A stretch of 64,000 nucleotides of DNA from an uncultured Prolixibacteraceae bacterium (GTDB taxonomy: Bacteria; Bacteroidota; Bacteroidia; Bacteroidales; FEN-979), in contig CAYSAU010000004.1 in NCBI GenBank assembly GCA_964429135.1, positions 127,028 to 191,027 of the forward strand. The letters are read 5' to 3'. Each line of letters begins with the position of its first letter. Position 1 is the stretch's first letter. Of the stretch, positions 44,801 to 63,578 are shown in pieces. The position numbers and the translations under genes are program-made. The notes under the pieces are model-generated. The model worked only from the letters and a program-made list of their open reading frames with translations. It had not been told where the DNA came from and did no database searches.

Positions 44801-47800
44801 TTCCTTGACCGTGAAAAACGTTAACAACTGCAGTAATACAAGAATCAAACCCATTACCATCAATACCCCACCTACGGCTGACTTTTCGGCCACTGAAGCC
44901 TGCCAGGGAACGAATACGGTTTTCACAGATAATTCTACCACACCCGCAGGTACAAATATTACCACTTATACTTGGGACTTCGGTGATGGCTTCGGAGGTA
45001 CAGGCCCTAACCCTCAACATGCTTATGCTACTTATGGAACCTACTATGTCAGACTGACGATTTTAAATACCGACCTCTGTATCAATGAAACCGTTAAACC
45101 GGTTTTTGTTCATCCTAACCCCTTGCCTGATTTTTCATTTTCGCCTTCCACCTGTATCGGAAATCCGGTTTCCTTTACGAATCTGTCCACCATGCCTCCG
45201 GGAAATGGTTTTTCAGACAGACCGGATATCTGGACATGGGATTTCGGCGATGGCTCTCTTCCTGTTACCATCAATTACCCGGATAACCCAAATATTGTTC
45301 ATACTTTCCTGGGTACTGCCCCATCTCATATTGTTACCTTGACCGTTACCTCAAATACAGGGTGCGTGGCATCCATACAAAAAACGGTTAACAGTGTTCC
45401 ATCCCCGGATGCAAATTTCTCTTATTCAGGAAGCCAATGTGCTGATCAGGCTATTCAATTTACAGATCAGACTTCGGAAGCCGGAGGAGGAGCTATCCAG
45501 TCCTGGTACTGGACTTTTGGTGACCCTCTTTCAGGTGCCAGCAATACTTCCACTTTACGCAATCCCATTCATACTTTCATAGGTGGACCGGGAACCTATA
45601 CCGTTACGCTTTTAGTCACCAATACCAATGGATGTACCAGTACCAGATCGTATGATGTGATCATTAATATGAAACCTGTGTCGAATTTCACAGCCACCAC
45701 CCCCTGTGAAAACAGTCCGACTATCTTTACCAATACTTCTACCCCCAATGCCGCTGCCATTGTTTCCTCCTTCTGGGAATTCGGCGATGGAGGTACTTCT
45801 AACCAATCTTCTCCTACTTATACCTATCTGACTTACGGAATCAAGAATGTCAAACTTACCGTCACCAATTCCAATGGATGTATTCATGATACTACCAAGC
45901 AGGTTTCAGTCTATCCTAAACCAACAGCATCATTCACCTATTCAGCCAATGCCTGTATAGGAAATCCGGTGAACTTTGTCAATCATTCAACCGTTCCCGG
46001 CTCCATGTCGAGTTATATCAATACCTGGGTTTGGGATTTCAATGATGGTTCACCGGTACAAACCATAACCTACCCTGATAATCCTGATGTGACCCATACC
46101 TTTCTCGGTACTGCCACCTCCTTTACCGTGCGACTTACCGTGACGACTACTGCTGGGTGCACCAATTTCATTGATCAAACCGTAAATCTTGTTCCATCTC
46201 CCGTTGCAAACTTCTCTTATTCTTCCACCAATTGTATTTATCAATCTGTACAATTCACAGATCAAACGCAAACTGCCGGAGGAAGCAATATTCAATTCTG
46301 GAGCTGGAATTTTGACGATCCGGGATCAGGATCAAATAACTTCTCACAGTTACAAAACCCTGTTCATATTTTTCAATCCAGCGGAACCAAGACGATCACC
46401 CTGATCGTAACCAGTATGAACGGGTGTAAGGATACTGTGACCAAAGACCTGACCATCAATGCCCGTCCGGTTTCACAGTTCTCTGCCACCACTGCCTGTT
46501 TGGGGTCGGTAACAACTTTTACAGATGAGTCAACCCCCCCGTCAGGTGCTAGCATTGTCAGTCATTTCTGGGAATTCGGGGATGGAGGTACTTCTTCGAT
46601 TGCCAATCCGACATATACCTATTTGTTGGCAGGCAATCATAATGTCACACTTACCGTAACCACCAATCAGGGTTGTACAAAAGACACCACCATACAGGTA
46701 ACTGTGCTGGGTAAACCTATATCAAGCTTTACTTACACTTCTCCGAATTGCTCGACTGATTCCGTGTATTTCACCGATCATTCTTCCACACCTCATGGTT
46801 CAATCACCAAATGGGAATGGAACTTTCAGGATGGATCTCCGGTAGTCACACGCAATTATCCGGAATCACCCAATGTGGCGCATAAGTTTCCCAATGGAGG
46901 CACCTTCAATGTGAAACTGACGATTACGACATCGGATGATTGTGTGTCGGAAAAAACCCTTCCGGTACAGGTTGAATTTGCACCCCTGGCTAATTTCAGT
47001 TTTGCCGCCAATGCCTGTGCGCTTTCTCCTATTCAGTTCACAGATAATTCCCAGCCCAATGGAGGGGCTCCGGTGGTGAACTGGAACTGGAATTTCGGAG
47101 ATCCCGGCTCAGGATCCAATAATACTTCCATAGTTCAAAATCCCACCCATGCCTTTACGGCAGGAGGCACATACGATGTTTATCTGATTGTGACCAATGT
47201 TAACGGATGTAGGGATACCATTCAAAAATCCATTACCGTCAACAATGCCCCGGTAGCTATATTTACTGCTGATACTTCCTGCTTGACAAGTCCGACTCAG
47301 TTCATCGACCAGTCCACCACCTCTCCTGGAAATATCATTGCATGGGCCTGGAATTTTGGGGATCCGGCATCAGGTACGAACAATACCTCGACCTTGCAGA
47401 ATCCAACGCATATATATAATTCCCCGGGAACATATACCGTATTGCTGACGGTGACCAATACAGCTACCTGTACAAAAGACACTTCAATGCAGGTGACAGT
47501 GAACCCGAAACCAGTGGCTTTATTCAGTTATTCAGCAAGCTGTGTGGGAGATTCCACACAATTTACGGATTTATCCATCGCTCCGGGAAGCTCAGTGACT
47601 TCCTGGTTGTGGGATTTTAATGATGGTTCCCCAACGGTTAACCAGCAGAACCCTATGCATGCGTTCATGACTTCCGGAACTTTCCAGGTAAAACTGGTGG
47701 TGACTAACTTGAGTAATTGCAAGGATTCCGTGATCATACCCGTTGTAACACGTCCCACCCCGACAGCCGCTTTTCAGTATGTCAATTTCTTCTGTCCGGC

Positions 47801-49889: not shown

Positions 49890-49908
49890 CGCTAAAATAT
49901 TTCTCGTA

Positions 49909-51018
49909 ATGAAAAGAAGCATTATATATCCATTCCTGTTGTTATTGGGATCACTTTTTCTCAATCTGGCGGCCCATGGGCAGGACATGAACTACTCCCA
50001 GTATTTCAGCACACCTATCTATTATAATCCGGCTTTTACCGGTCTGAATACCGGTTTAAGGGCAAGGTTTTTATTCAGGGATCAATGGCCAAGTTTACCC
50101 ATTGATTATAAGTCTTATTATTTTTCGGCAGACTTGGGTGATCGTAACCTGCCCGGATCAGGTGGGTTGGGAATAACCATCAATTCGGATACGCCTGGTA
50201 TTGGGTTGATCAATAACCTTTCTGCCGCCCTGAATATCGGCGTCCGCATTCCTATCACTGCTTTTCTGGTGGCCCAGGTTGGGATCAAAGCGGCTGTAAT
50301 GCAGAGAAAAATTAACTGGGAGAAACTGGTGTTTGCTGATAACCTGGATCCACGCTATGGCAATATTTATCAGACTTCTTTTGTTGCACCTGATGCCAAT
50401 AAACGGGTGGTTCCTGATTTCGGCGCTGGAGGTATCCTTCAGTTCATGAGTCCGAATTCTAATATTTCAGGGAATGTGGGATTTGCTGTGGATCATATTT
50501 TCAGACCGGATGTCGGATTTCTTTCCACCGGCGCTTCTCCTTATCCCCGCAAATGGGTTGGGCATGCCGATATCGTTATTTCAGCCGGTTCACCCGGCTC
50601 TACCTCAACTCAATATCGTGGTTCTGATGAACCGTTGAAGATAAATATCGGGGCTTTATATCAGAATCAGGCCGATCTGAATTCACTGCAGGTGGGTTTA
50701 AATCTGTTAAAATTTAATATCTATTTGGGAGGATGGTATAAAACCACCATGACTGGTCTTCCAAACAGTATTCTTGCATTGGTAGCCGGGTACCGATATA
50801 TGTTCCAGGATAACATGAGCATTAAATTCATGTATTCCTATGACCTTCAGATTTCCGGTGCGCTCCAGGGTACTGGGGGGGCTCATGAAATCAGTCTCGT
50901 TCTGGAGTTTGATAAATTATCTTTATTTGGCGGAGGTGGAAGTGGGGGTGGATACCTCCCCGGTGGTGGCGGACGTTCACGTAACGGCGGAGCCATGGAA
51001 TGTCCTTCCTTCTATTAA
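49909..51018 (+). CDS. PorP/SprF family type IX secretion system membrane protein
   Basis: It has a signal peptide, then QDMNYSQYFSTPIYYNPAFTG, which is the family hallmark. It has a beta-barrel-like alternating pattern and a Gly-rich tail ending ECPSFY. It lies immediately downstream of a type B CTD gene. Confidence 0.85.
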   Translation: MKRSIIYPFLLLLGSLFLNLAAHGQDMNYSQYFSTPIYYNPAFTGLNTGLRARFLFRDQWPSLPIDYKSYYFSADLGDRNLPGSGGLGITINSDTPGIGLINNLSAALNIGVRIPITAFLVAQVGIKAAVMQRKINWEKLVFADNLDPRYGNIYQTSFVAPDANKRVVPDFGAGGILQFMSPNSNISGNVGFAVDHIFRPDVGFLSTGASPYPRKWVGHADIVISAGSPGSTSTQYRGSDEPLKINIGALYQNQADLNSLQVGLNLLKFNIYLGGWYKTTMTGLPNSILALVAGYRYMFQDNMSIKFMYSYDLQISGALQGTGGAHEISLVLEFDKLSLFGGGGSGGGYLPGGGGRSRNGGAMECPSFY

Positions 51019-51031
51019 TATCACCTACAGA

Positions 51032-53014
51032 ATGGATTTTCCTTTCATTCTTGTATTGCTGATTCTAACTATTTTCATCCTCATCCTGCCTTCCAGGGTT
51101 CGTTTTTTCTATACTCTTTTTGTGACAGGACTGATCATTGTGATCACCTCCATACCCGCTGTTGATACCCTGTTTCATGGGTCAAGGTCTTCTTTGGTTT
51201 TTTATGACCAGGAATTGCTGGGTACGGTGACTTTTACACTCGATGGTCTTAGCGCATTTTTTATCCTGCTGACCAACTTCTCCGTCTTCATGGGCCTGCT
51301 TTATTCAAATGGGTATCTGAAGTCATATCAGAAAAATAAAACCAGGGCCAGCTTGTCTTTGCATTATTTTAGCTATTGCTGGTTGCACCTTTCCATGCTG
51401 GCTGTGCTGATGCTTCGCGACGGACTTGCTTTTTTGATTGCCTGGGAATTGATGGCTGTATCCTCCTTTATGCTGATTCTTTTTGACGCTGAAATCAGAA
51501 CAAACCTGAAAATAGCTGTAAATTATCTGATACAGATGCATATTGGATTGGTATTGTTAGTCATAGCCTTTCTTATGGAAGGAATAGATACTGGCCATTT
51601 TGGTTTTGACGGGCTGACGACTTATTTTTCCAGGCATCCCAATGCACCCTTATGTTTTCTTTTCTTTGCCGGATTCGCGATTAAGGCTGGCTTTATTCCC
51701 TTCCATACCTGGCTTCCGGAAGCACATCCAGCAGCTCCTTCTCATGTTTCAGGGGTCATGTCAGGAGTGATGATTAAAATGGGAATATATGGTATCGTCC
51801 GGGTGCTTACTTATGTTCAGTCTGATTTTATAACCATTGGAATGACTTTGCTGATCATTTCTGCTCTGACTGGCTTATATGGGGTGATGATGGCAATTGT
51901 TCAGCATGACCTGAAAAAGCTACTGGCCTATCACAGTATTGAAAACATTGGCATCATAGGGATTGGTTTGGGATTGGGATTACTGGGATTGGGATTACAT
52001 CGACCACCCCTCGTAATACTAGGATTTGCAGGCAGTTTGTTACATGTGCTTAACCATTCTTTGTTTAAGCCCTTATTGTTTTTCAGCGCAGGTTCCGTTT
52101 ACAAGGCTTATCATACAAGAAATATAGAACAGCTTGGTGGTGTGATTCATAAAATGCCCAAAACCTCGGGTTTATTTATGATAGGCGCATTATCCATTTG
52201 CGGACTTCCGCCTCTGAATGGATTCATCTCAGAGTTCCTTATCTATTATGGTTTGATTATTGGAATGTCAGCAACAGTGGTTTATTATTCCATCTCCTTT
52301 CTCCTGACCATCATTGCTTTAACGCTCATCGGTGGACTGGCTATTTTCTGTTTTACCAAAGCCTCGGGTATAGTTTTCCTCGGATCTGGCAGAACGCGTA
52401 TTGATCATGAAATAAAGGAAGTTGAAACTGGGATGTTAATCCCCCAGTATCTGATCTCCTTCATGATCATTCTCATCGGATTTATTCCCATACTATTTAT
52501 TAATCCTCTTTTGGGCATAGTTTCTTCTGTTTTTCAAGTTCCTACGGGAGAACTTGCGACAACGCTATTACCGGTTCTTGATAAGATTGTTTTGCTGAGC
52601 GTTGTCCTGATTCTTTTCGTTATTGTTTTATTGTGGGTAAGGAAGCGGAAGCTGAATTCAGCCAATGTATTCACTGCGGATACTTGGGGATGCGGATATA
52701 CTGCCGCGACAACACGTCAGCAATATTCGGCTACTTCCTATGCTGCCAATTATGCCGAATTGGCTCATCCGGTTTTACAGGAAAAAACGGACTACGCTGA
52801 AATTCATGAAGAGGATATTTTTCCTGGTAAACGTTCATTTGCCTTTCATCCATTGGATATATTCAAATCGATTCTGAATAAGATCACAGACTATTCCATG
52901 TTGGTGTTAAAAAAAATCGCCCGCCTGCAAACTGGTAACATTCAGCATTATATTCTCTATGCCTTCATTTTTATTCTGGTTATTTTTGTTTTGCTTTACC
53001 TGGAACTGATATAA
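51032..53014 (+). CDS. antiporter-like membrane subunit (HyfB / NuoL-like; EhrA-like)
   Basis: The start is placed at the ATG at 51032 (MDFPFILV); the ORF-track start at 50840 lies inside porP/sprF. It has IAWELMAVSSF (TM5 Glu), AIKAGFIPFHTWLPEAHPAAPSHVS (TM7 Lys), SIENIG and HSLFKPLLFFSAGS (TM12 Lys). Confidence 0.85.
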   Translation: MDFPFILVLLILTIFILILPSRVRFFYTLFVTGLIIVITSIPAVDTLFHGSRSSLVFYDQELLGTVTFTLDGLSAFFILLTNFSVFMGLLYSNGYLKSYQKNKTRASLSLHYFSYCWLHLSMLAVLMLRDGLAFLIAWELMAVSSFMLILFDAEIRTNLKIAVNYLIQMHIGLVLLVIAFLMEGIDTGHFGFDGLTTYFSRHPNAPLCFLFFAGFAIKAGFIPFHTWLPEAHPAAPSHVSGVMSGVMIKMGIYGIVRVLTYVQSDFITIGMTLLIISALTGLYGVMMAIVQHDLKKLLAYHSIENIGIIGIGLGLGLLGLGLHRPPLVILGFAGSLLHVLNHSLFKPLLFFSAGSVYKAYHTRNIEQLGGVIHKMPKTSGLFMIGALSICGLPPLNGFISEFLIYYGLIIGMSATVVYYSISFLLTIIALTLIGGLAIFCFTKASGIVFLGSGRTRIDHEIKEVETGMLIPQYLISFMIILIGFIPILFINPLLGIVSSVFQVPTGELATTLLPVLDKIVLLSVVLILFVIVLLWVRKRKLNSANVFTADTWGCGYTAATTRQQYSATSYAANYAELAHPVLQEKTDYAEIHEEDIFPGKRSFAFHPLDIFKSILNKITDYSMLVLKKIARLQTGNIQHYILYAFIFILVIFVLLYLELI

Positions 53015-53925
53015 TGGGATGTCTGCTTGCTATCGTCACTGCCCTGTTTTTTCCCGGGATCATCCTCCGGATGAAAAGTTTGTCAAGCGGTCGGAAAGGG
53101 CCAAAGATAATGCAGCCCTGGAGAGACATAATGGTATTGTTACAAAAAGGAAGCGTTTTTAGCAGGGTGTCGAGTTATGTCTTTCGCATCGCTCCGGTAA
53201 TTTATTTATCCACCATTTTTTGTGCACTGCTGTTGTTGCCCTTTCCCGGGCTTCCATCAGTCTTTGGTTTTGATGGTGATTTTGTGCTTTTTGCCTATAT
53301 GCTTGCCCTGGGAAAGTTTTTATTTATCCTATCAGCGCTTGATACCGGAAGCAGTTTTGAAGGAATGGGGGCAAACCGTGAAGCCTTGTACAGTATGCTA
53401 ACCGAACCTGCTTTTTTCATTCTATTTGGGACCTTGTCATTGCTTACTGGTTATACATCCATGCAGCAGATCTTCGAATCCTTCCAGTTTGTAGGGCATA
53501 ACTCATTTATAATCGGGTTTATTGCGGTTTACCTCCTGATTCAGATCGCCATGATTGAGAATAGCCGTATGCCGGTGGATGATCCAAAGACACACTTGGA
53601 GCTGACCATGGTTCACGAAGTGATGATTCTTGACCATAGCGGATTCGACCTGGCCTTGATCCATATCGGAACAGCATTGAAATTTGCCATGTACGGGTCG
53701 CTGGTGGCAAACTTCCTGATCCCTGTCGAATGGGCGCTGTCAGCAAGAATAGCCCTATTTTTTGCCATACAATTGACATTTGCCGCTATGATAGGGGTGA
53801 TGGAGTCATTCCGCGCACGGAAAAAGCTGGCCAATAATCCGCAATTCATAGTCACCCTGAGCGTCATTGCACTGGTCGCTTTTATTCTGGTTTTATTGAT
53901 CACTTTCAATATGATCGCATCATGA
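53014..53925 (+). CDS. NuoH-like membrane subunit (HyfC / HycD-like; EhrB-like)
   Basis: It is a 303 aa polytopic protein with DTGSSFEGMGANREALYSMLTEPAFF and MPVDDPKTHLELTMVHEVM, typical of HycD/HyfC. An ATGA-type overlap joins it to the previous gene. Confidence 0.8.
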   Translation: MGCLLAIVTALFFPGIILRMKSLSSGRKGPKIMQPWRDIMVLLQKGSVFSRVSSYVFRIAPVIYLSTIFCALLLLPFPGLPSVFGFDGDFVLFAYMLALGKFLFILSALDTGSSFEGMGANREALYSMLTEPAFFILFGTLSLLTGYTSMQQIFESFQFVGHNSFIIGFIAVYLLIQIAMIENSRMPVDDPKTHLELTMVHEVMILDHSGFDLALIHIGTALKFAMYGSLVANFLIPVEWALSARIALFFAIQLTFAAMIGVMESFRARKKLANNPQFIVTLSVIALVAFILVLLITFNMIAS

Positions 53926-54539
53926 CCGTAATGCTCGTTATCGTTTTTGCAATTACCCTGATTTACCTGAGTATGACAAAACGTTTTCTCATCTTTACCG
54001 GACTCATCGGGTTTCAGGGAGTTTTGCTGTTTGTCCTTTCACTGCTTGAACTTCATTCCATTACCCTGGGAACCCTGCTGTTTGTGGCCATTGAAACTTT
54101 GGTTTTCAAAGTGATCGTAGTTCCCTACCTGCTCTTCCGGATCATTGATAAGACGGGTGAAGCCCGCGTACACGATAAAGCGCTTCCTGGTTTTTACAGT
54201 CTTTTATTTATAAGCCTTGGCCTGATACTTAGTATTGTGGTTTCTTTTTCCATGAATTCCAGACCATCCACGATGTTATATTTTATTGTCGCCTTCTTTG
54301 CAGTATATACAGGGCTGTTTATCATTATCTCCCATAGAAAAATATTCTCTCATCTCGTTGGTTTTTTGGTCATTGAGAATGCTGTGTTGCTGCTTTCCCT
54401 TGCCATAGGAAGTGAAATGCCTATGCTGATCAACATTGGCATTCTCCTCGATATTTTTGTCAGTGTATTAATCCTGGGAATTTTCGTGATGAAACTTAAG
54501 CAAACAACGCATGAATTAACAATGTTGAAAGATGATTAA
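53922..54539 (+). CDS. NuoK-like membrane subunit (HyfE-like; EhrC-like)
   Basis: It is 205 aa with about 6 TM segments and membrane-embedded Glu residues in FVAIETLVF and LVIENAVLLLSLA. It overlaps the previous gene by 4 nt. Confidence 0.75.
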   Translation: MTVMLVIVFAITLIYLSMTKRFLIFTGLIGFQGVLLFVLSLLELHSITLGTLLFVAIETLVFKVIVVPYLLFRIIDKTGEARVHDKALPGFYSLLFISLGLILSIVVSFSMNSRPSTMLYFIVAFFAVYTGLFIIISHRKIFSHLVGFLVIENAVLLLSLAIGSEMPMLINIGILLDIFVSVLILGIFVMKLKQTTHELTMLKDD

Positions 54540-54594
54540 TGCAATGTTTGAAGAATGTTATAATAAAAAGACAACTCTTAATCGTAACCGGTAA

Positions 54595-56034
54595 ATGTCA
54601 TCAGTCGGATATATTTTGATGGTTTTTTTCGCGGTTTTTCTCCTGCTGACGATTATCGTGGGATTATTGCACAGTAAAGTGATTGCCAGAGGGTTGACGA
54701 TCCTTTTTGTGATCATTCATCTGCTTTTCACTGTTTATTGCTGGATGCATCTGGGTGAAACGGTTCTCGAGTATTTTACTTTCGATCCGCTGGGTGTATT
54801 GTTATTGTCTGTCCTTTCATTACTCACGATAACCACAGTTTATCATGGTTTTATTTATGTAAAGGAAGATTCTCCGCGTATCTATGCCATCTATCATGCT
54901 GCATTAATGGCGTTAATTATCGCCATGTCGGGGGCTTATCTTGCCAATGGCATGACTACGGTTTGGATCTTTGTTGAGGCCACGACCCTCGCAGTGGCTG
55001 CGCTGATCTATCATGACCGGTCATCCATCGCCCTTGAGGCAACCTGGAAATATGTTTTTGTCTGTTCAGTCGGAATTGCCCTAGCTTATCTCGGGATACT
55101 TTTCCTCGGATTTACGGTGCATGATGGTCGGTTGCTTCATCTTTCTTTCAGCAACATCATTGAAATTGCCCGCATGGCCAACCCGCTTTACCTGAAAATT
55201 GCTTTTGTGTTTGTCCTGGTGGGATACAGCACCAAAATGGGATTATTTCCCATGCATACGGTTACTGTGGATGCTCATACTGTGGCGCCTCCGCCGATCA
55301 GCGCTTTTATTTCTACTACCCTTATGAACGTCGGATTCCTAGCTATTTTTCGCATCTATGCGCTTTTCTCGGCTACTACCATTCTTCCATTCATGAACCA
55401 TGTTTTGATTTTGTCAGGCGTGTTATCCTTGCTTGTTTCAGCAGGATATATGCTCAAAGCAAAACACAATAAAAGGATGCTCGCTTATTCAAGCCTTGAA
55501 AATATGGGCATAGTCGCCATTGCACTGGGAATTGGAGGCATCGGTTATTATGCCGCCATCCTTCATATCGTCCTTCATTCTTTTACAAAAGCAGGATTGT
55601 TCTACCAGATCGGTCAATCTTACAAGGTTATGGGTACCTATAAACTCGATGAATCAGGGAATTATATGACGCTATATCCTGCCGGAGCCGTTGCCCTTCT
55701 GCTTGGTTTTCTATGCATCACTGCTATTCCCCCTTCCGGAATGTTCATTTCGGAATTATATTTGATGAAAGCCATGATTATTTCCGGAAACTGGGTATTG
55801 CTGGCACTGACGGCTATTTTGCTTTGCTTTGTCTTATATGCCTTACTCACCCGTGTTCTTCATATTGTTTATTCCCAGCCAAGGGAAAAGCCATTGCATG
55901 AACCCAGAAAAGTGAATCCCTGGCAATCGGTCAGTCAATATATCCTCTTTGGCCTGGTCATTTTAATCTGTTTTATGCAACCTGAGCCATTGCGCCATCT
56001 GATTGAATCCATCATCAATGCCTTACCAAAATAA
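54595..56034 (+). CDS. antiporter-like membrane subunit (HyfF / NuoN/M-like; EhrD-like)
   Basis: It has FVEATTLAVAAL (Glu), STKMGLFPMHTVTVDAHTVAPPPISAF (Lys), SSLENMG and HSFTKAGLFYQIG (Lys). Confidence 0.82.
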   Translation: MSSVGYILMVFFAVFLLLTIIVGLLHSKVIARGLTILFVIIHLLFTVYCWMHLGETVLEYFTFDPLGVLLLSVLSLLTITTVYHGFIYVKEDSPRIYAIYHAALMALIIAMSGAYLANGMTTVWIFVEATTLAVAALIYHDRSSIALEATWKYVFVCSVGIALAYLGILFLGFTVHDGRLLHLSFSNIIEIARMANPLYLKIAFVFVLVGYSTKMGLFPMHTVTVDAHTVAPPPISAFISTTLMNVGFLAIFRIYALFSATTILPFMNHVLILSGVLSLLVSAGYMLKAKHNKRMLAYSSLENMGIVAIALGIGGIGYYAAILHIVLHSFTKAGLFYQIGQSYKVMGTYKLDESGNYMTLYPAGAVALLLGFLCITAIPPSGMFISELYLMKAMIISGNWVLLALTAILLCFVLYALLTRVLHIVYSQPREKPLHEPRKVNPWQSVSQYILFGLVILICFMQPEPLRHLIESIINALPK

Positions 56035-57587
56035 TGAAGGAAACCCGATATATCGAGCTGTTTTCTAATCCCGGGAGTGTTCTCCTCGAGGAGATACCCA
56101 TCATGGGATATGATGATTTTTTGTCCTTTACCAATTTGTTGATGGGTGAAGAAGGAACCCATTGCGCAGCCTACTTCGTCTTGCCTCAGAGAGACAAATT
56201 CCGGTTTATTTGCTGTATGGCTGCCGATGAAAATCACGCCCTTGTGATCTATTCTCATGAACAGGAAATCAGCCCCCTCCCATCACTACCCTCCATATCA
56301 GAGAAGCATTTTCAATTTCATGTCTTTGAAAGGGAAATCCATGAACAGTATGGCATCGGGTTTACCGGTCATCCCTGGCTGAAACCCATCCGATATCCTT
56401 ATAACAGGGCAGATCAGTCGGCCATCATGGATTGTTATCCCTTCTATTCCATTGAAGGGGAGGAGCTTCATGAAGTGGGTGTTGGCCCGGTTCATGCCGG
56501 GATCATTGAACCAGGGCATTTTCGCTTTATTGGTAATGGTGAAAAGGTTCTTCATCTGGAGATACACCTCGGATATCAGCACAGGGGTTTGGAACGACTG
56601 ATGGTTGAAAAGCAGGATATTCTTGCCCGGACTTTACTTGCTGAAAGCATCGCCGGTGATACCGTAGTGGGTCACACAATGGCTTATTCAGGCTTGATGG
56701 AATCACTTTCGGGTAAAACTATTTCTTCCCGCCTGTCAGTAGAAAGGATCATTGCCCTGGAACTCGAACGTATAGGGATTCATATTGGCGATACGGCTGC
56801 AATATGTACGGATATTGCTTATCAGTTCGGACAGGTCGTAAATGAGGCACTCCGGACCATCATTATCAATACTACCCAGTTATGGTGCGGGAATCGTTTT
56901 GGCAAAGGACTTATTCGTCCGGGAAGAACGCATTATCCCCTGCAGGAACCCCTTGCTAAAACCATTATGAAAAATCTGGATGAGGTGGAAGAACGTTATC
57001 TTCATATGGCCGACAGAATTTTCTCCCTGCCAAGCGTATTGGGACGTTTTGAAAGTATCGGGAAACTTTCCACCATGCAGGCCACCCTGATCGGAGCCGT
57101 GGGTATGACGGCAAGAACCAGCGGTATGCACCGCGATGTTCGCTGGTCTCATCCTTTCGGCGCTTATGTTAATCATCCTTATAACCCCGTGATTCTGAAA
57201 AAAGGAGATGTCTGGTCAAGGGCCATGCTTCGTAAAATGGAAGTGGTAAAATCTATTGAAATTATCAGGCAACTGTTGAAGGAGTTAAAGACAAATGATG
57301 TACACCTTGCGAATCCCGGAATCGCTGATTCAAAATATGGTAGCGAAAACCCAAAGTATTTCCTTGCCCCTTCTTCATTTGCTGTTTCCCTTGTTGAAGG
57401 CTGGCGTGGAGAAATTTGTCATATCGCGGTGACCGATGACGATGGCAAGATCATTTCTTATAAGATAAAAGATCCCTCGTTTCATAACTGGCAGGCATTA
57501 GCATTGGCAGTCAGAAACCAGGAAATCTCGGATTTCCCATTATGTAATAAGAGCTTTAATCTTTCATATTGTGGACATGACCTTTGA
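56034..57587 (+). CDS. HycE/HyfG-like large subunit (NuoC-NuoD fusion) lacking NiFe-binding cysteines (EhrL-like)
   Basis: It has a NuoC-like N-terminus (FEREIHEQYGIGFTGHP) and the NuoD/HycE-like motifs VGPVHAGIIEPGHFRF and GYQHRGLERL. The L1 position reads SIAGDTVVGH instead of R-x-C-G-x-C-x-x-x-H. The C-terminus reads NLSYCGHDL-stop instead of DPCxxCxxR plus extension. There is no CxxC anywhere in the 517 aa. Confidence 0.82.
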   Translation: MKETRYIELFSNPGSVLLEEIPIMGYDDFLSFTNLLMGEEGTHCAAYFVLPQRDKFRFICCMAADENHALVIYSHEQEISPLPSLPSISEKHFQFHVFEREIHEQYGIGFTGHPWLKPIRYPYNRADQSAIMDCYPFYSIEGEELHEVGVGPVHAGIIEPGHFRFIGNGEKVLHLEIHLGYQHRGLERLMVEKQDILARTLLAESIAGDTVVGHTMAYSGLMESLSGKTISSRLSVERIIALELERIGIHIGDTAAICTDIAYQFGQVVNEALRTIIINTTQLWCGNRFGKGLIRPGRTHYPLQEPLAKTIMKNLDEVEERYLHMADRIFSLPSVLGRFESIGKLSTMQATLIGAVGMTARTSGMHRDVRWSHPFGAYVNHPYNPVILKKGDVWSRAMLRKMEVVKSIEIIRQLLKELKTNDVHLANPGIADSKYGSENPKYFLAPSSFAVSLVEGWRGEICHIAVTDDDGKIISYKIKDPSFHNWQALALAVRNQEISDFPLCNKSFNLSYCGHDL

Positions 57588-57712
57588 AACGGAATTCAAT
57601 AATGTATCGTTACGTCAAAATATCCATGCAAGAATAATGGATCATGATGGTTCCAATCCCTGCATCTGCCTGATAATTTTTTTGCTTAGCAACGATCAAA
57701 GCACTATCCAAA

Positions 57713-58462
57713 ATGCGTGAATTTAAAATTTTCAGGAGTCATGGGAAGCAGTTTATTCCCGATTTGCGGAATGCCGAATTGCCCGGAATCTTTCGCGGAA
57801 GACCGGTAATCAGCGAGGATATAGTTCCAGATGAAGCCAGCAAACTCTCAAAAATTTGTCCTGTTGGCGCGATCCAGGCCGCCCCCTTTTCCCTTGATCT
57901 CGGCCGATGTGTTTTTTGCGGGGAGTGTGAGTTTTTCTTGCCGGGCAAGGTTTGTTTTACCAATGATTATCGCCTGGCTGCCAACAGGAGGGAAGACCTG
58001 ATCATTAAAGCTGGAGAAAATCAATCGCTTCGATTGTTTGAACCAGCGGTAAACCCTGAAATACGGAAAGTTTTCAAACATTCTCTAAAATTGCGACAGG
58101 TTTCTGCCGGTGGGGATAATTCCTGTGAAATGGAGTTGAATGCTGCCGGCAATGTCAATTTCGATATGGGAAGATACGGAATACAGTTTGTTGCATCACC
58201 CCGTCATGCGGATGGGATGGTCTTAACAGGACCCCTTACGCGAAACATGTCAGAAGCGATCAAACTCACCTGGGAAGCAATCCCTTCGCCGAAAATCTTA
58301 ATTCTGGTTGGATCTGATGCCATCAGCGGAGGGTTGTTTTTAGAAAGTCAGGCAATTAACCGCCAATTTTTGGAAGATCATCCCGCAGATTTATATCTGC
58401 CCGGAAATCCGACCCACCCCCTGACCTTCATCAATGGGATCATGGATCTGCTTGGGATTTAA
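57713..58462 (+). CDS. fusion of a degenerate ferredoxin (HycF/HyfH-like) and a NuoB/HycG-like small subunit lacking most FeS ligands (EhrS-like)
   Basis: The N-terminal half has FRGRP...SKICPVGAI...CVFCGECEFFLP, which leaves one complete 4Fe-4S ligand set. The C-terminal half has FVASPRHADGMVLTGPLTR, the NuoB/HycG hallmark. The cluster-ligand positions read GGDNSCEME, GSDAISGG and PGNPTHP. Confidence 0.8.
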   Translation: MREFKIFRSHGKQFIPDLRNAELPGIFRGRPVISEDIVPDEASKLSKICPVGAIQAAPFSLDLGRCVFCGECEFFLPGKVCFTNDYRLAANRREDLIIKAGENQSLRLFEPAVNPEIRKVFKHSLKLRQVSAGGDNSCEMELNAAGNVNFDMGRYGIQFVASPRHADGMVLTGPLTRNMSEAIKLTWEAIPSPKILILVGSDAISGGLFLESQAINRQFLEDHPADLYLPGNPTHPLTFINGIMDLLGI

Positions 58463-59076
58463 TATACTCCGTTTTTTCTGATGTCTGACAATATGGTCAC
58501 AATGGGGGAGCACCAGTGCTTAATTCCCATTCCTGCAGCTTTTGCCGTATATTTTCGGGTACGGATTACCGTTTTTGTGTTAGGATCGAAATAAGTCACC
58601 CAGACATTGGCCAGCTCGGTGGTTTTATCAAAGCTCTCAACGATGATCACGAGACCTATCCCGTCTTTTTCAGCGGGAGTATATTTTTTAACCATTTTTT
58701 CCACCTTATCCTCGGTAAACTGGGGTTTTTCCTTGTCGTTGTTGCCAAAGAGATCGGAAATGTCGATATTGGAATTACGTTCACCAACAACCGATAAGTC
58801 GATGAATACATAGTTCATGCCAAGCAATTTTTTCAAATCCATGGGGAAAGTGGTGAACCTGCCTTCTGCAAAAGCGGTATTCCAGGCTGGAATATCAAAG
58901 GAGAGCATCTTCTCGCGATCCATAAATGGGCCATAAAATCGTGCCTGGGAAAAATCAAGCCCAAACCATATCAACGAGCGTGCATTTCTGACATCCCCAA
59001 GGGTATATTTCGATTGAGAAAGCCCTGTCTGGGAGAAAATTGCCAGGAGCAAGGACAGGATAAATAATTTTTTCAT
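58459..59076 (-). CDS. hypothetical secreted protein
   Basis: It has a signal peptide (MKKLFILSLLLAIFSQTGLSQ) and is 205 aa long. I recognise no family. Its stop overlaps the convergent small-subunit stop in a TTAA. Confidence 0.5.
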   Translation of the reverse strand: MKKLFILSLLLAIFSQTGLSQSKYTLGDVRNARSLIWFGLDFSQARFYGPFMDREKMLSFDIPAWNTAFAEGRFTTFPMDLKKLLGMNYVFIDLSVVGERNSNIDISDLFGNNDKEKPQFTEDKVEKMVKKYTPAEKDGIGLVIIVESFDKTTELANVWVTYFDPNTKTVIRTRKYTAKAAGMGIKHWCSPIVTILSDIRKNGVY

Positions 59077-59115: not shown

Positions 59116-59925
59116 TTATAATACTTCTTTTCCTGGGTACAATTTTTTCATGTATTGGCTGACCATTAATGCTGAGCATGATCGGGGAAGTATCCGGGTA
59201 AGAAAGAAATAATTTAAACGGTTTTTCCACCCCGGGATATGAATAGCTTTCCTTCCCAGGTTTTGTAATGAAGATATGGCGACTTTTTCTGCTTTCATGG
59301 CATTTTTAACCTGGTTTTTTTTCTCTCCCAGGCTTGTCAGATAGGTTGGGGTGAGTGTAATCCCGGCACAGCATGCCTGAATGTCAATCTTCTTCTCCTT
59401 AAATTCATGGTATAAGGCTTCTGCCAGGATGATGTTAAAAGCTTTTGTTGCAGCATAGGGTGCAACATACCTAGGACCAACCAATCCTGCCAGAGATGAC
59501 ATCAGAATAATTCCACCGGAACCCTTGTTCCCGATCATTTCAGCAAAATCATGAACCAGCAATAAGGGGGTCATACTGTTCAAATGGACGAAACGTTTCA
59601 GTTCGTTTGTGTTGTTGGAAAGAAATGGACGGACTTTACTGAAGGCCGCAACATAAATCATAAGCCGGCAGTCTATTTTCCGGATTGCTTCCATACATAA
59701 ATGGACGGAATGCTCATCTTCAAGGTCATGGGTAATACACAGGGTTTGAACTCCGTAGGTGGTTTCGATTTGACGAGACAGGTTGTGTAATGCTTCTTTG
59801 TGAATATCCACCATCACCAGATGTTGTCCTTTTTCGGCAAGGAGCATCGAAAAAGCTTTCCCTATCCCTTCGGCAGCACCGGCTATCAGCGCCCATCCTC
59901 CATATCTTACCAGATGGTTCTTCAT
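59116..59925 (-). CDS. SDR family oxidoreductase
   Basis: It has the Rossmann motif ALIAGAAEGIGKA, the catalytic motif YAATKAF (YxxxK), and is 269 aa long. Confidence 0.8.
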   Translation of the reverse strand: MKNHLVRYGGWALIAGAAEGIGKAFSMLLAEKGQHLVMVDIHKEALHNLSRQIETTYGVQTLCITHDLEDEHSVHLCMEAIRKIDCRLMIYVAAFSKVRPFLSNNTNELKRFVHLNSMTPLLLVHDFAEMIGNKGSGGIILMSSLAGLVGPRYVAPYAATKAFNIILAEALYHEFKEKKIDIQACCAGITLTPTYLTSLGEKKNQVKNAMKAEKVAISSLQNLGRKAIHIPGWKNRLNYFFLTRILPRSCSALMVSQYMKKLYPGKEVL

Positions 59926-59987
59926 GTTTTTTTTTATCTTTGCGATCTTTGCTTTTGCTGGTGCAATGATACTTATTTCTTATCAGA

Positions 59988-61172
59988 ATGAGGAGCTTGC
60001 TTTTTTTATTTTTAAGGTGTTTAAAATTTTTTCAATCGCTAAGCCGTAAAATATCCGGCTATTCCCTGAATGACATTCATGCCCAAAGGGTGGTCTCGGG
60101 AAAAGCGTGGGAGGATTTCTGTAATCAACTGAAACTGGCCGGAGCTTCCCTGATGTACCCTGGCACTCCACATGATGCTTTTCAACAGGCAGAAGGCTTA
60201 CGTTATCTCACCCGTTTAACCCGGGGAGGACTGGAAGCCTTTGTGGAATTCAACGATCCTGCCTTTCCGGTATTAAGAAGAACTGCCCATGAAACCATCA
60301 AGCTAGGAGCCGATAATCCCGACAACCTTTATTTCAATGCCCAGATCTCGGGAGATTTTGAATACCGTCTGAAAGGGAAAAGAAATACCATCCACTATTT
60401 GGGATTTTTCACTCAAAACGGCAATTATGGCACAACCGGGGGATTATCCCCCTGTGGGTCGCTTGAACATACCGAAATGAAACTTGAACCCGACGGAAGT
60501 TTTGAAATCATTTTAAGCGAAATTCCCAAAGGGAAAAACTGGCTGAAAATCTCCAGGGAAACCAGCCTGGTCATGGTTCGACAGACTTTTCTCGACCGAA
60601 ATAAGGAAATTCCGGCCGAACTTAGCATTGAAAACCTTGATGGACGGAAATCTCCCGAACCCATTACCCCGGCCATGATCGACGAAGGCCTGAAGACCGC
60701 CTCCCTGTTTGTGGCTGGCGCCTCACTGCTCTTTTCGAAATGGGCTAAGGGATTCAAGGAGCACGTTAACCAATTGCCTTTGTTTGACCCTGATGTTTCC
60801 AATGCGGCAGGAGGCGATGCCAATATTATTTATTACCACAGCTACTGGAAACTTGACCCCGACGAAGCGCTCTTGATCGAAGTTAAACCTCCTGATTGCG
60901 ATTCCTGGAATTTTCAGCTTAACAATTATTGGATGGAATCCCTCGATTATCGTTATTTCAATATATGTGTCAACAAGGCCGGAGCCCATTATGAACAGGA
61001 TGGAAGCGTGAAAATAATTATTGCCCACCAGGACCCTGCTCTGCCTAACTGGATCAATACCTGCGGGCATACGGAAGGAACGATGCTCTGGCGATGGTAC
61101 CGGCTAAAACCAGGGGAACAGGCTGTACAACCGACCTGTAAGCTGATCAAGAAACCTCAAAGCATACTATGA
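59988..61172 (+). CDS. hypothetical protein, DUF1214-like
   Basis: AEGLRYLTRLTRGGLEAFVEFNDPAFP...KLGADNPDNLY resembles DUF1214-type proteins from memory. The start is uncertain: the ATG at 59988 gives an odd N-terminus, and a TATCTTTG -7-like box lies at 59935-59942. Confidence 0.4.
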   Translation: MRSLLFLFLRCLKFFQSLSRKISGYSLNDIHAQRVVSGKAWEDFCNQLKLAGASLMYPGTPHDAFQQAEGLRYLTRLTRGGLEAFVEFNDPAFPVLRRTAHETIKLGADNPDNLYFNAQISGDFEYRLKGKRNTIHYLGFFTQNGNYGTTGGLSPCGSLEHTEMKLEPDGSFEIILSEIPKGKNWLKISRETSLVMVRQTFLDRNKEIPAELSIENLDGRKSPEPITPAMIDEGLKTASLFVAGASLLFSKWAKGFKEHVNQLPLFDPDVSNAAGGDANIIYYHSYWKLDPDEALLIEVKPPDCDSWNFQLNNYWMESLDYRYFNICVNKAGAHYEQDGSVKIIIAHQDPALPNWINTCGHTEGTMLWRWYRLKPGEQAVQPTCKLIKKPQSIL

Positions 61173-61258
61173 AATACACCAGGGGCGCTAAAACATACTT
61201 CGTGAACTTTGTGCATCCATTGTGACCATTGTGGTAAAATAATGAATTAATGTAAAGA

Positions 61259-62584
61259 ATGACAAAAAATACTATGACAGATTCCCGGGTTTTTGATCGC
61301 CGACCTTTGCTTTTTCGAATGCTGAATGCTGCCTGGGGAAGCAGTTATGTGCTGGGAACAAAAATAAAACTGGATAAGGATGACCTGATCAGAACAGCGA
61401 GAAAAAAAACCGGATTGTATGATCTTGGAAAGGAATTTCGCGAAGAACCACTGGAGCGCCTTCTGAAATCTGTCAATGAAGAAGCAGAATTGCATCCCAT
61501 CGGGCGTTTCATTGCCCGTGAACGTTTTGTCAGCCTGCTCAGTATCCGCCTCAGGGCTGAATGTCTGTTTAAGAAGTATCCCTGGATCCTCGACCAGGAA
61601 TTATATCCCGCTTGGATTATCCTGGGATTGCAAAGAACGGGGACCACAAAACTTCACCGTTTGCTTTCCGTTGATCCCGATCATCGCTTTATCCCAAGCT
61701 GGGAAGTCATTAATCCCTTACCATTGGATCAAAGCTTATATACCCACCCACCCGATAATTCACCCACCAGCCATTTCACCGGATTACCAACTGACGTGCA
61801 CGACAAACGTCTGAACATTGCCCGCACCTCAGCACGGGCGGTGAAACTCATGTTGCCGGGATTTTATGCCATACACCCAATAGAAATCTTTGAGCCCGAA
61901 GAAGATATTTTATTGCTCGATGTCAGCTTTCTATCGACCACCCCTGAAGCCATGATGCATGTGCCTTCATACGCAGCCTGGCTGGAAAATACAGATCAAT
62001 CGGAAGCCTACGCGTATGCGGCAAAATTGCTGAAGTTACTACAATGGTTCAGACCTGCTAAACGATGGATATTGAAAACCCCGCATCACCTTGAATTTCC
62101 TGATCTGATTGAAAGATATTTCGGTGAAGTTCATTATCTGTGGCCCCATAGGAATATTTATGAATCCGTCCCTTCCTTTCTTAGTATGGTTACCTATACC
62201 CATATGATGTTCTCAGATACCGTGGAGGAAAGCCGTATTGCACGCCATTGGGTAAAGAAAACCGGTTATATGCTCCAAAAGGCGCTGAATTATAGATTAC
62301 AGCAAAATCATGAATCGAAATTTACAGATATTTTATACCAGGATTTTATCAAGGACTCCATCTCTGAATTGTCCCGCATATATCAATTAAATGGGGGTTT
62401 GACCCCAGAACTCTCCGGGAAATTTAGACAGCATGAATTAAGCCACCCGCACAGAAAATATGGAACCCATCAGTATTCCTTGGCTGATTTTGATCTTACT
62501 GAAGCTGATATTGATCTGCATACCGGTCAGTATCAATCATTTTTAAAGCAATTATATGTCCGAAAACAAACAAGCTCAGTATAA
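61259..62584 (+). CDS. sulfotransferase family protein (Sulfotransfer_3-like)
   Basis: It has the 5'-PSB P-loop-like motif GLQRTGTTKLHRLL and a later RWILKTPHH segment, and is 441 aa long. Confidence 0.7.
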   Translation: MTKNTMTDSRVFDRRPLLFRMLNAAWGSSYVLGTKIKLDKDDLIRTARKKTGLYDLGKEFREEPLERLLKSVNEEAELHPIGRFIARERFVSLLSIRLRAECLFKKYPWILDQELYPAWIILGLQRTGTTKLHRLLSVDPDHRFIPSWEVINPLPLDQSLYTHPPDNSPTSHFTGLPTDVHDKRLNIARTSARAVKLMLPGFYAIHPIEIFEPEEDILLLDVSFLSTTPEAMMHVPSYAAWLENTDQSEAYAYAAKLLKLLQWFRPAKRWILKTPHHLEFPDLIERYFGEVHYLWPHRNIYESVPSFLSMVTYTHMMFSDTVEESRIARHWVKKTGYMLQKALNYRLQQNHESKFTDILYQDFIKDSISELSRIYQLNGGLTPELSGKFRQHELSHPHRKYGTHQYSLADFDLTEADIDLHTGQYQSFLKQLYVRKQTSSV

Positions 62585-63578
62585 CAATCCCGTTCTCGCA
62601 GTTTTCACGGGAATCCGTGACCTTTTCCGTAAACAGATCCCTTCCGGTGAACTTCGGGAAAATGATCGGTTGGATGGAAAAACCGTGCTGGTTGATGGCT
62701 CAAGCTCAGGCCTGGGTTTTGCCATCGCCCTGGATTGTGCCAGACGGGGTGCAACCATCATCATGGCTTGCCGAAGCGGTATCCCGGGTAAAGGAGAACA
62801 AGTGAAACAATTATCCAGGAACCCGAATGTTCATATGCTCCCGGTTGATTTTTCCGATTACAACAGTATTCTACATCTTGCTTACAGTATCCGGGATCAG
62901 TTTGCTCCTATCGACATCTACATCTGCAATGCCGGTATTGTACCTAAGAAAAGCAGGACTACCCCCCAGGGACTCGAAGAAATGTTCATGGTCAACTATT
63001 TCTCAAAATTTATTTTTGTCAATTTATTAGTAGAGAATAATTGCTTTTCTGATCCCGCATCTCGAATCCCCCGTATCATTTTTATCGCTTCCGAATCCCA
63101 TCGTAATCCTAAACAATTTGAATGGGAAAAATTCGGGATTTATGAACCCTATTCCATAGGGAAAAGTATGGAACTTTACGGTTATTACAAATTACTTCTG
63201 ACTACATACGCCAGGGAACTTTCCCGGCGTTTAAATCCAGTTTCACAAACCCGTTTTTCCATATTCGCACTCTGTCCCGGTCCGGTTAATTCAAATATTG
63301 CAAGAGAAGCCCCGAAAATTTTCCATCCACTGATTAAACTGGTTTTCGGGATTTTTTTTAAATCACCGCAAAAAGCCGCGATCCCTGCAGTTTATCTGGC
63401 CGCATCCGGGGATCAGGAAGGCAAAGCATGGGATTACTTTTTTCTGATGAGCAGGAAAGAAGCCGATGAAAAAGCAAACGACCCGGCCAATGGCCAAAAA
63501 GTTTGGCAATTGTCAGAGACAATGCAGAAAAAATTAATGGCAGATCATTCCCCTTTTGACAAAAAGTTCAATCCTTGA
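62556..63578 (+). CDS. SDR family oxidoreductase (long form)
   Basis: It has VLVDGSSSGLGFAIA (TGxxxGxG type), NAG and YGYYK (YxxxK). It overlaps the sulfotransferase 3' end by 29 nt. Confidence 0.78.
   Translation: MSENKQAQYNNPVLAVFTGIRDLFRKQIPSGELRENDRLDGKTVLVDGSSSGLGFAIALDCARRGATIIMACRSGIPGKGEQVKQLSRNPNVHMLPVDFSDYNSILHLAYSIRDQFAPIDIYICNAGIVPKKSRTTPQGLEEMFMVNYFSKFIFVNLLVENNCFSDPASRIPRIIFIASESHRNPKQFEWEKFGIYEPYSIGKSMELYGYYKLLLTTYARELSRRLNPVSQTRFSIFALCPGPVNSNIAREAPKIFHPLIKLVFGIFFKSPQKAAIPAVYLAASGDQEGKAWDYFFLMSRKEADEKANDPANGQKVWQLSETMQKKLMADHSPFDKKFNP

Follow-up and report, generated by a model that had tools for sequence, protein, structure and literature searches.

What can a protein do that combines the folds of two iron-sulfur subunits of the complex I superfamily and keeps the ligands of a single cluster? 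The question is raised by a gene in a 64,000-nucleotide (nt) stretch of contig CAYSAU010000004.1, from an uncultured Prolixibacteraceae bacterium. This whole stretch is called the window in what follows; all coordinates are positions in it, and residue numbers refer to the 249-amino-acid (aa) product of the gene. The gene encodes the EhrS-type small subunit of a six-gene Ehr complex, in a variant typical of the Bacteroidota. The N-terminal half of the protein probably binds a single [4Fe-4S] cluster through C49 together with C66, C69 and C72, and in the C-terminal half the site of the proximal cluster has been replaced. The gene and its parts are listed below, with conservation taken from an alignment of 121 close homologues (62-100% identity, mean column identity about 64%), and with dN/dS, the ratio of non-synonymous to synonymous substitution rates, taken against one syntenic orthologue operon whose proteins are 92-99% identical (EhrS, 92%).

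57713..58462, + strand: EhrS-type small subunit gene, 249 aa (open reading frame (ORF), Pfam and NCBIfam, alignments to Protein Data Bank (PDB) chains, AlphaFold2 (AF2) model, Foldseek, dN/dS 0.20)
57716..57805, + strand: N-terminal short helix (residues 2-9) and F27-R28-G29-R30-P31 (NuoI alignment, AF2 model)
57827..57856, + strand: lost first CxxCxxC, residues 39-48, PDEASKLSKI (alignment with NuoI CVACNLCAVA; residues 39-48 form a helix in the AF2 model)
57857..57862, + strand: C49-P50, the kept Cys-Pro of motif 1, putative fourth ligand of the surviving set (invariant, 121/121)
57908..57928, + strand: C66-x-x-C69-x-x-C72, the kept CxxCxxC of motif 2 (invariant, 121/121; aligned with NuoI CIFCGLC)
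57938..57943, + strand: L76-P77, Leu in place of the eighth ferredoxin Cys, Pro kept (NuoI alignment; P77 in 118/121)
58082..58453, + strand: NuoB/HycG-like (Oxidored_q6) half, residues ~124-247 (Pfam, E 8e-19; MbhJ and HycG alignments; Foldseek)
58115..58126, + strand: D135-N-S-C138, a former CxxC, the first Cys now Asp, the second kept but unconserved (MbhJ and HycG alignments)
58316..58318, + strand: D202, at the third proximal-cluster Cys (MbhJ and HycG alignments; D in 119/121)
58406..58408, + strand: N232, at the fourth proximal-cluster Cys, PGCP having become PGNP (MbhJ and HycG alignments; N in 121/121)

The ORF spans exactly 57713-58462 on the + strand, starts with ATG and codes for 249 aa. 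Pfam, NCBIfam and alignments to solved chains concur in describing a NuoI/HycF-like ferredoxin half fused to a NuoB/HycG-like half, and the motifs on which the original prediction was built (DEASKLSKICPVGAI, RCVFCGECEFFLPGK, GGDNSCEME, GSDAISGG and PGNPTHP) are all found in the translation. The Pfam family Oxidored_q6 (PF01058) covers residues 136-246 with an E-value of 8e-19, and the fold is that of the HycG/MbhJ/NuoB class. The ferredoxin half yields weak Fer4 and NuoI/HycF matches over residues ~23-116 (Pfam, NCBIfam, NuoI alignment); the Fer4 match itself, at residues 62-73, scores 19.2 bits, under the curated cut-off of 21.1. NCBIfam returns NuoB-family matches together with weak NuoI, HycF and HyfH ones (residues ~53-111), all of them far under their curated cut-offs. 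The AF2 model, for which 36 homologues served as input, is confident (predicted local distance difference test (pLDDT) 84, predicted template modelling score (pTM) 0.84), and the sole poorly defined part of the isolated protein is the low-pLDDT loop 134-149, which holds D135 and C138. Used as a Foldseek query, the model matches HycG (7Z0T_G), MbhJ (6CFW_J) and NuoB chains with target-normalised TM-scores of up to 0.77. Homologues are annotated in databases as 'Ni,Fe-hydrogenase III small subunit' or 'NADH:ubiquinone oxidoreductase'; on EhrS-type proteins such labels overstate capability, with modest practical consequence. We also considered whether the fusion is a novelty of this gene, and rejected the idea, this being the standard small-subunit architecture across the Ehr family, 12-Cys members included.

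In ferredoxins with two [4Fe-4S] clusters, of the clostridial fold, each cubane is held by three Cys of one motif and the Cys-Pro of the other. Residues 23-116 align with E. coli NuoI (phmmer, E 3.5e-5) in such a way that the first NuoI motif (CVACNLCAVACP) pairs with a Cys-free stretch followed by C49-P50, and the second (CIFCGLCEEACP) with C66-V-F-C69-G-E-C72-E-F-F-L76-P77. Instead of the two CxxCxxCxxxCP motifs of NuoI and HycF, EhrS thus has only the Cys-Pro of motif 1, and in motif 2 a Leu-Pro for the Cys-Pro. Because each cubane mixes three Cys of one motif with the Cys-Pro of the other, one complete set survives and the other site is left without ligands. The original prediction had claimed precisely this, and the alignments to NuoI, MbhJ and HycG bear it out: exactly one composite ferredoxin set is left (C49, C66, C69, C72), and none of the four ligands of the other site remains. 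The order of the set is permuted with respect to classical monocluster ferredoxins, CP coming first and CxxCxxC second. Among the top residues listed for columns 39-48 in the 121 homologues, the only Cys is a single one at position 48. Outside the ligands, the N-terminus matches the N-terminal extension of NuoI and HycF and is, like the half as a whole, homologous to NuoI; FRGRP aligns with YRGRI of E. coli NuoI, and H10, G29, R30 and P31 are invariant in the close-homologue alignment. An N-terminal helix is reported for all NuoI homologues of the complex I superfamily (PMC9474812).

The NuoB half aligns with MbhJ of Pyrococcus furiosus (E 4e-23) and with E. coli HycG (E 8e-21). In these alignments SCNGCDIE of MbhJ and GCNGCEIE of HycG pair with GDNSCEME, so that the first Cys corresponds to D135 and the second to C138; GACxxxG pairs with GSDAISG, the Cys becoming D202; and PGCPP pairs with PGNPT, the Cys becoming N232. 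In place of the four Cys that hold the proximal [4Fe-4S] (N2) cluster, the protein therefore presents D135, C138, D202 and N232. For want of the defining ligand sets, it counts as a functional member neither of the hydrogenase small-subunit/NuoB class nor of the 2x[4Fe-4S] NuoI/HycF class. The earlier account of this half, with one Cys left in GGDNSCEME, one Cys changed to Asp and one to Asn, stands as far as it went; it missed that the first NuoB Cys has become an Asp as well (D135). A residual proximal cluster on Asp ligands was considered and is unlikely, since roughly one orthologue in three has Ala, Val, Thr, Ser or Gly in place of C138, the sole Cys left at the site.

The pattern is conserved. 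C49, P50, C66, C69, C72, D135 and N232 are invariant in all 121 close homologues, and position 202 is Asp in 119. The position of C138, by comparison, holds Cys in 78, Ala in 37 and other residues in 6, and position 76 holds Leu in 79, Cys in 22 and other residues in 20. C81, which is not a ligand, is unique to the window protein and is not Cys in the other aligned sequences. Along the operon, from EhrA to EhrS, dN/dS amounts to 0.12, 0.12, 0.02, 0.05, 0.17 and 0.20. The argument that a loss so selective speaks for function rather than decay thus finds support in purifying selection on the gene (dN/dS 0.20) and in the conservation of the kept set. The dN/dS value and the conservation, which extends across thousands of homologues, rule out a pseudogene or a decaying gene.

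EhrS is the last gene of a six-gene operon (51032-58462), whose other members are the following.

51032..53014, + strand: EhrA, HyfB/HycC/NuoL-like antiporter-like subunit, 660 aa (NCBIfam hydrogenase 4 subunit B, E 1e-145)
53014..53925, + strand: EhrB, NuoH/HycD-like subunit, 303 aa (Pfam NADHdh, E 2.5e-23)
53922..54539, + strand: EhrC, HyfE-like membrane subunit, 205 aa (NCBIfam hydrogenase 4 membrane subunit, E 2.6e-11)
54595..56034, + strand: EhrD, HyfF/NuoN-like antiporter-like subunit, 479 aa (Pfam, NCBIfam)
56034..57587, + strand: EhrL, NuoC-NuoD/HycE-like large subunit, 517 aa (Pfam; alignment to HycE, MbhL and Nqo4)

This six-gene set recurs in synteny on other contigs and was seen in 70-80 species-level loci. 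The start of EhrA is likely the ATG at 51032, which gives the 660 aa called in syntenic contigs, and not at 50840, the start of the longest ORF; that ORF would overlap the upstream PorP/SprF gene (49909-51018) by 179 nt. EhrL lacks all four Cys that ligate the nickel-iron (NiFe) site, with A, T, S and G in their places: aligned with HycE and MbhL, CGIC has become AGDT and DPCxxC has become NLSYCG. Alignment to HycE, MbhL and Nqo4 further shows that there is no Tyr at the position of the quinone-site Tyr of complex I. EhrL does carry the Ehr signature, E-x-I-A-G-D-T...H and KSFNLSYCGHDL. The motifs GPxHAGxIEPGHFRF, E-x-[IVL]-[AC]-G-D-[TS]..H and KSFNLSY[CSA]G.DL are common to 70 of the 70 EhrL proteins recovered, whatever small subunit they go with, and this group of loci includes Geomonas limicola, of the Geobacteraceae. 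In the membrane arm, EhrA keeps the Lys residues of transmembrane helices (TM) 7, 8 and 12 (HycC alignment), and in EhrD the TM5 Glu is retained along with the Lys of TM7 and TM12 (MbhH alignment). The TM8 Lys of EhrD is an Asn (LMNVG versus VIKIG) in alignments to MbhH, MBS subunit H and NdhB (MBS, membrane-bound sulfane sulfur reductase).

Ehr (energy-converting or Ech hydrogenase-related) is defined in the literature as a hydrogenase-related complex without NiFe ligands, its name having been coined in Geobacter (Coppi 2005) and the family later surveyed by Marreiros et al. 2013 (both cited in PMC7894505, PMC3569383, PMC6349859). The window operon has the six-gene set, lacks the NiFe Cys and is orthologous to a Geobacteraceae cluster; the comparison behind this was made with Geomonas limicola (EhrS 46% identical, same EhrL signature) and not with the G. 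sulfurreducens genes GSU0739-45. A true hydrogenase or complex I is ruled out by the absence of the NiFe Cys, the N2 Cys and the quinone-site Tyr.

How general is the loss of cluster sites in the family? A scan of species-representative genomes gave at least 600 matches, of which the best 80 loci were analysed. Among these are Bacteroidales, Prolixibacteraceae, Lentimicrobiaceae, Saprospiraceae, Rikenellaceae, Ignavibacteria, Melainabacteria, Planctomycetota, Verrucomicrobiota, Spirochaetota, Acidobacteriota and Geomonas limicola. Metagenome-assembled genomes assigned to Paludibacter, Maribellus and Tangfeifania also carry the operon. When the ligand positions were tabulated across the recovered loci and representatives at 50% identity, four groups emerged. 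The first has all 12 Cys (8 ferredoxin and 4 NuoB), enough for three clusters, and comprises Geomonas, Stygiobacter, Ignavibacteria, Planctomycetota, Verrucomicrobiota, Acidobacteriota and others. The second, made up of Melainabacteria/Gastranaerophilales and several other clades, has only the C49-type set and the four NuoB Cys (CCCC). The third is the Bacteroidota group, in which the C49-type set is the only one left and the NuoB site reads D-x-D-N, and the fourth an Isosphaeraceae locus with the eight ferredoxin Cys and D-S-D-N at the NuoB site. The Melainabacteria/Gastranaerophilales loci with the two-cluster pattern are L044, L046, L047, L051, L054, L056 and L057.

A census of 252 distinct full-length family members gives the same picture. 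The C49-type set is complete in 246 of them, the other six being apparently fragmentary or misaligned; the conservation of the retained Cys among orthologues, which had been set beforehand as a test that could overturn the original prediction, is thus confirmed. The other ferredoxin set is complete in 46 of the 252 and the NuoB set in 68, and the two are found in every combination, always with the C49-type set. In a neighbour-joining tree with the ligand columns masked, for which parsimony counts are rough and some sequences partial, the Bacteroidota D-x-D-N group forms a single clade, and losses of the distal-type set are scattered over many separate clades. The only EhrS columns that part the cluster-less group from the CCCC group are 135, 202 and 232. 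The search for a compensatory change in EhrL brought up four discriminating columns, all mild (H/R43, G/A149, K/R291, P/D302) and none obviously informative.

Two side observations belong here. In a Rikenellaceae/Alistipes branch (L032, L039, P0188) the four ferredoxin Cys are kept and the triad is degenerate (D-V-E-A, D-T-D-A, H-R-E-A), so that Asn232 is not universal in the Bacteroidota. Six further relatives of 230-274 aa from the representatives at 50% identity (P0175, P0219, P0231, P0233, P0246, P0250) keep the four-Cys set as CP...CxxCxxC...FP, with NuoB ligand positions that are gapped or unrelated.

The Isosphaeraceae deserve separate attention. The EhrS of the locus found there (L067, 9001-9732) shares 68% identity with a Planctomycetia protein of the CCCC type and only 46% with the window EhrS; for the EhrL of the locus, the corresponding figures are 70% and 39%. 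Since both proteins are nearer to the CCCC-type Planctomycetia than to those of the window, the proximal site was lost separately in this family. Its ligand stretches read GGDNSSE, GADAISGG and PGNPPHP. The 120 closest clusters (P0271-P0390, 72-96% identity) keep the eight ferredoxin Cys, bar one N-terminally truncated sequence. At the NuoB site, position 1 is a nearly invariant Asp, position 2 is S, A, T or G, position 3 is C, D, A, S or P, and position 4 is N, D, S, F or W, which gives strings such as DSACN, DSSDN, DAACN and DSAAD. The replacement triad, nearly fixed in the Bacteroidota, drifts in the Isosphaeraceae. On these comparisons, at least two large-scale losses of the proximal cluster have occurred, and each time the first position has become Asp.

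The question arises as to which cluster has been kept. Exactly the C49-type set and the NuoB CCCC are kept by Melainabacteria and at least seven other clades, and a relay built from these two sets can work only where the two clusters lie next to each other. For this reason the retained cluster is most likely the medial, N6b-like one, which adjoins the NuoB cluster site. This agrees with the ligands that we take N6b to have in Nqo9 of Thermus thermophilus, Cys63, 98, 101 and 104; a residue-level assignment of N6a and N6b ligands for NuoI/Nqo9 or MbhN/MbsN was not found in the literature searched.

Read from the sequence, then, the distal ferredoxin site is gone, the proximal site consists of D135, a variable residue, D202 and N232, and EhrL has no NiFe ligands. 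The explanation that we favour, with a confidence a little better than even, is that EhrS holds a medial cluster only, in a wire that is cut at both ends, and that this cluster acts as a structural keystone and possibly as a redox reporter. The wire that feeds the large-subunit pocket in membrane-bound hydrogenase (MBH), formate hydrogenlyase (FHL), complex I and classical Ehr would be interrupted on both sides in the Bacteroidota form, and an orphan middle cluster could not deliver electrons to the EhrL pocket, because the distal cluster, the proximal cluster and the NiFe site would all be absent. The cluster would have been kept to hold together the ferredoxin-like fold and its docking onto EhrS/EhrL, during folding and assembly, and might also report the cellular redox state. 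The membrane arm may continue to translocate ions, driven or gated by something besides electron flow down the wire; the Lys and Glu kept in the antiporter-like subunits are consistent with this and do not show it. More speculatively, the place of the lost cubane is probably taken by the Asp/Asp/Asn triad, which may mimic the negative charge of the cubane (roughly -2 with the thiolates) or bind a cation. Taken as a whole, a conserved and widespread Bacteroidota machine of the complex I kind with an orphan cluster as structural or regulatory keystone, a selected Asp/Asp/Asn triad, and ions moved without electron delivery to the pocket is a tentative and rather doubtful proposal.

Several points weigh against a structural cluster in a severed wire. 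The four Cys could in principle hold zinc or form disulfides, and the medial, N6b-like assignment is itself an inference. The Isosphaeraceae keep both ferredoxin clusters after loss of the NuoB cluster, which implies that the ferredoxin clusters may serve a redox purpose independent of the NuoB cluster, such as the reduction of an acceptor near the vacated site. In most Bacteroidota D135, D202 and N232 hardly vary, which points to an active role of the site, left unexplained by a structural model. All 12 Cys are present in the majority of Ehr lineages, and the ancestral function of the family was therefore probably redox-driven; a non-redox role in the Bacteroidota would mean a change of function. 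Finally, the function of Ehr is still described as unknown in the literature.

The main rival builds on the same residues. It supposes that the retained cluster still transfers electrons, from a soluble donor (ferredoxin or flavodoxin) to an acceptor at or beside the vacated NuoB cavity. The acceptor would be a metal ion, a flavin, a quinone or a substrate, bound or protonated by D135, D202 and N232, and the complex would be a redox-driven ion pump with new chemistry. The invariance of D135 and N232, and near-invariance of D202, among the 121 homologues is tighter than a mere filler would call for; Rikenellaceae and Alistipes members, however, have D-x-E/D-A. Asp appears again at the first position in the independent loss of the Isosphaeraceae, where both ferredoxin clusters are kept, but positions 2 to 4 drift freely there, which looks more like relaxed constraint than like a defined site. 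The pocket signature of EhrL is invariant in lineages with and without the wire, and a precedent for new chemistry exists in MBS, in which a three-Cys proximal cluster acts as the catalyst (PMC7684303). Yet Pfam and NCBIfam scans detected no cofactor-binding motif, no conserved partner oxidoreductase gene lies nearby, and the loss of the distal cluster leaves a donor no obvious cluster to dock at. Across 40 cluster-less and 37 CCCC-type loci, no gene for a redox partner or regulator recurs beside the operon, and only the six operon genes do. We consider this explanation unlikely, if the most serious of those opposed to a structural role.

A second scenario makes the retained [4Fe-4S] a redox or oxygen sensor that gates the assembly or activity of a non-redox cation or proton translocator, the peripheral arm capping an Mrp-like membrane arm; sensing Fe-S clusters in regulators would be the parallel. 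That the cluster is orphaned from both neighbours and yet never lost would fit such a role, as would the transport residues retained by the membrane subunits. The proximal cluster is also missing in the Isosphaeraceae and Saprospiraceae, lineages that include aerobes. In FHL, HycF has an off-pathway four-Cys metal site, tentatively assigned as iron, for which a redox-regulatory role has been proposed (PMC9474812). The case is purely inferential, however: the sequence does not tell a sensing cluster from a structural one, and a cluster on four Cys that lies buried between domains would make no obvious sensor. We regard it as distinctly improbable.

That there is no Fe-S cluster at all, the four Cys holding structural zinc or forming disulfides, or the protein being a decaying remnant, is very improbable indeed: the Fer4 score of 19.2 bits lies below the cut-off of 21.1, but the four Cys stand exactly at the one-cubane positions of NuoI/HycF-type ferredoxins, flanked by conserved Pro, Gly and Phe, the same four positions are conserved in the 12-Cys relatives, disulfides are unlikely in the cytoplasm, and both the dN/dS of 0.20 and a conservation that spans thousands of homologues exclude decay.

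The genes around the operon are as follows. Directly upstream, at 41805-51018, are a 2694-aa ORF and then the gene for the PorP/SprF type IX secretion membrane protein; PKD repeats abound in the syntenic copy that a relative (L084) has of the 2694-aa ORF. Upstream of the Ehr operon of a second relative (L001) lie aconitase and citrate synthase instead, so that this neighbourhood is not conserved. Downstream, on the - strand at 58459-59076, a 205-aa ORF with a signal-peptide-like N-terminus (MKKLFILSLLLAIFSQTGLS) and no Pfam match is convergent with EhrS and overlaps its stop codon by 4 nt; the closest relatives (L084, L085) have this ORF as well, and three others (L001-L003) lack it. The block that follows, 59116-63578, contains an SDR gene, a faint DUF1214-like match, a Sulfotransfer_3 gene and a second SDR gene; it is syntenic in L001 and L084 and has no evident link to the Ehr operon.

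If the ligand sets are read as clusters, the Ehr family forms a natural series: all three clusters, medial and proximal, distal and medial, and medial only. Across these wire variants the other parts of the complex stay essentially the same, and the series may therefore offer a comparative handle on the purpose of the Fe-S relay in the superfamily; the medial cluster would be the one element that is never dispensable in the family. Should electron delivery to the EhrL pocket indeed have ceased, the Bacteroidota form would be a natural complex-I-type coupling machine repurposed away from redox chemistry, and an example of the evolutionary replacement of a cubane site, from Cys to Asp, Asp and Asn. 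Together with the Isosphaeraceae loss, it would mean that the Ehr pocket and membrane arm function independently of the canonical electron relay. The Ehr literature searched discusses only the NiFe Cys of the large subunit, and in the literature covered, which did not include Coppi 2005 and Marreiros et al. 2013, we found nothing on cluster loss in the small subunit, on the medial set being invariant, or on the D-x-D-N replacement.

How does the window system compare with those already known? Classical EhrS of the Geobacteraceae type shares its operon, fused architecture and NiFe-less EhrL signature. It differs in its ligands: the classical protein (Geomonas and others) has 8 ferredoxin and 4 NuoB Cys, for three clusters, whereas the window EhrS has only four ferredoxin Cys and D/C/D/N. 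The best sequence and fold matches of the NuoB half come from the pairs HycF and HycG of E. coli FHL (PDB 7Z0S) and MbhN and MbhJ of P. furiosus MBH (6CFW), and the first two ligand positions of the window protein have the hydrogenase-like CxxC spacing (CNGC to DNSC); the ferredoxin half aligns with HycF as well as with NuoI. In those systems, however, separate proteins hold three [4Fe-4S] clusters that feed NiFe, while the window EhrS is one polypeptide with one set and a NiFe-less partner.

With NuoI and NuoB (Nqo9 and Nqo6) of complex I the folds are homologous, and the window EhrS shares with NuoI its N-terminal helix and its RGR motif. Its composite set, made of the Cys-Pro of motif 1 and the CxxCxxC of motif 2, presumably corresponds to N6b of complex I. 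Unlike complex I with its N6a, N6b and N2, the window system lacks a tandem-Cys N2 site, an N6a-like site and, in EhrL, the quinone-site Tyr/His. The nearest known remodelled site is that of MbsJ in P. furiosus MBS, another relative of complex I in which proximal ligation has been altered after loss of the NiFe ligands; MBS keeps a catalytic proximal cluster on three Cys (PMC7684303), whereas the window EhrS has one unconserved Cys there and no proximal cluster is expected. An isolated and yet retained [4Fe-4S] also exists as N7 in NuoG of bacterial complex I, mentioned as off-pathway (PMC9474812). N7, too isolated for a part in electron transfer, offers a precedent, but it sits in a different subunit and fold, and its likeness to the putative orphan cluster of EhrS is one of role only. 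Pohl et al. 2007 (Biochemistry) reportedly found N7 to be needed for stability. The EhrS proteins of the Melainabacteria and Isosphaeraceae types belong to the same family and operon and always keep the equivalents of C49, C66, C69 and C72: the former have lost only the distal-like set, the latter only the NuoB set, and the Bacteroidota form both.

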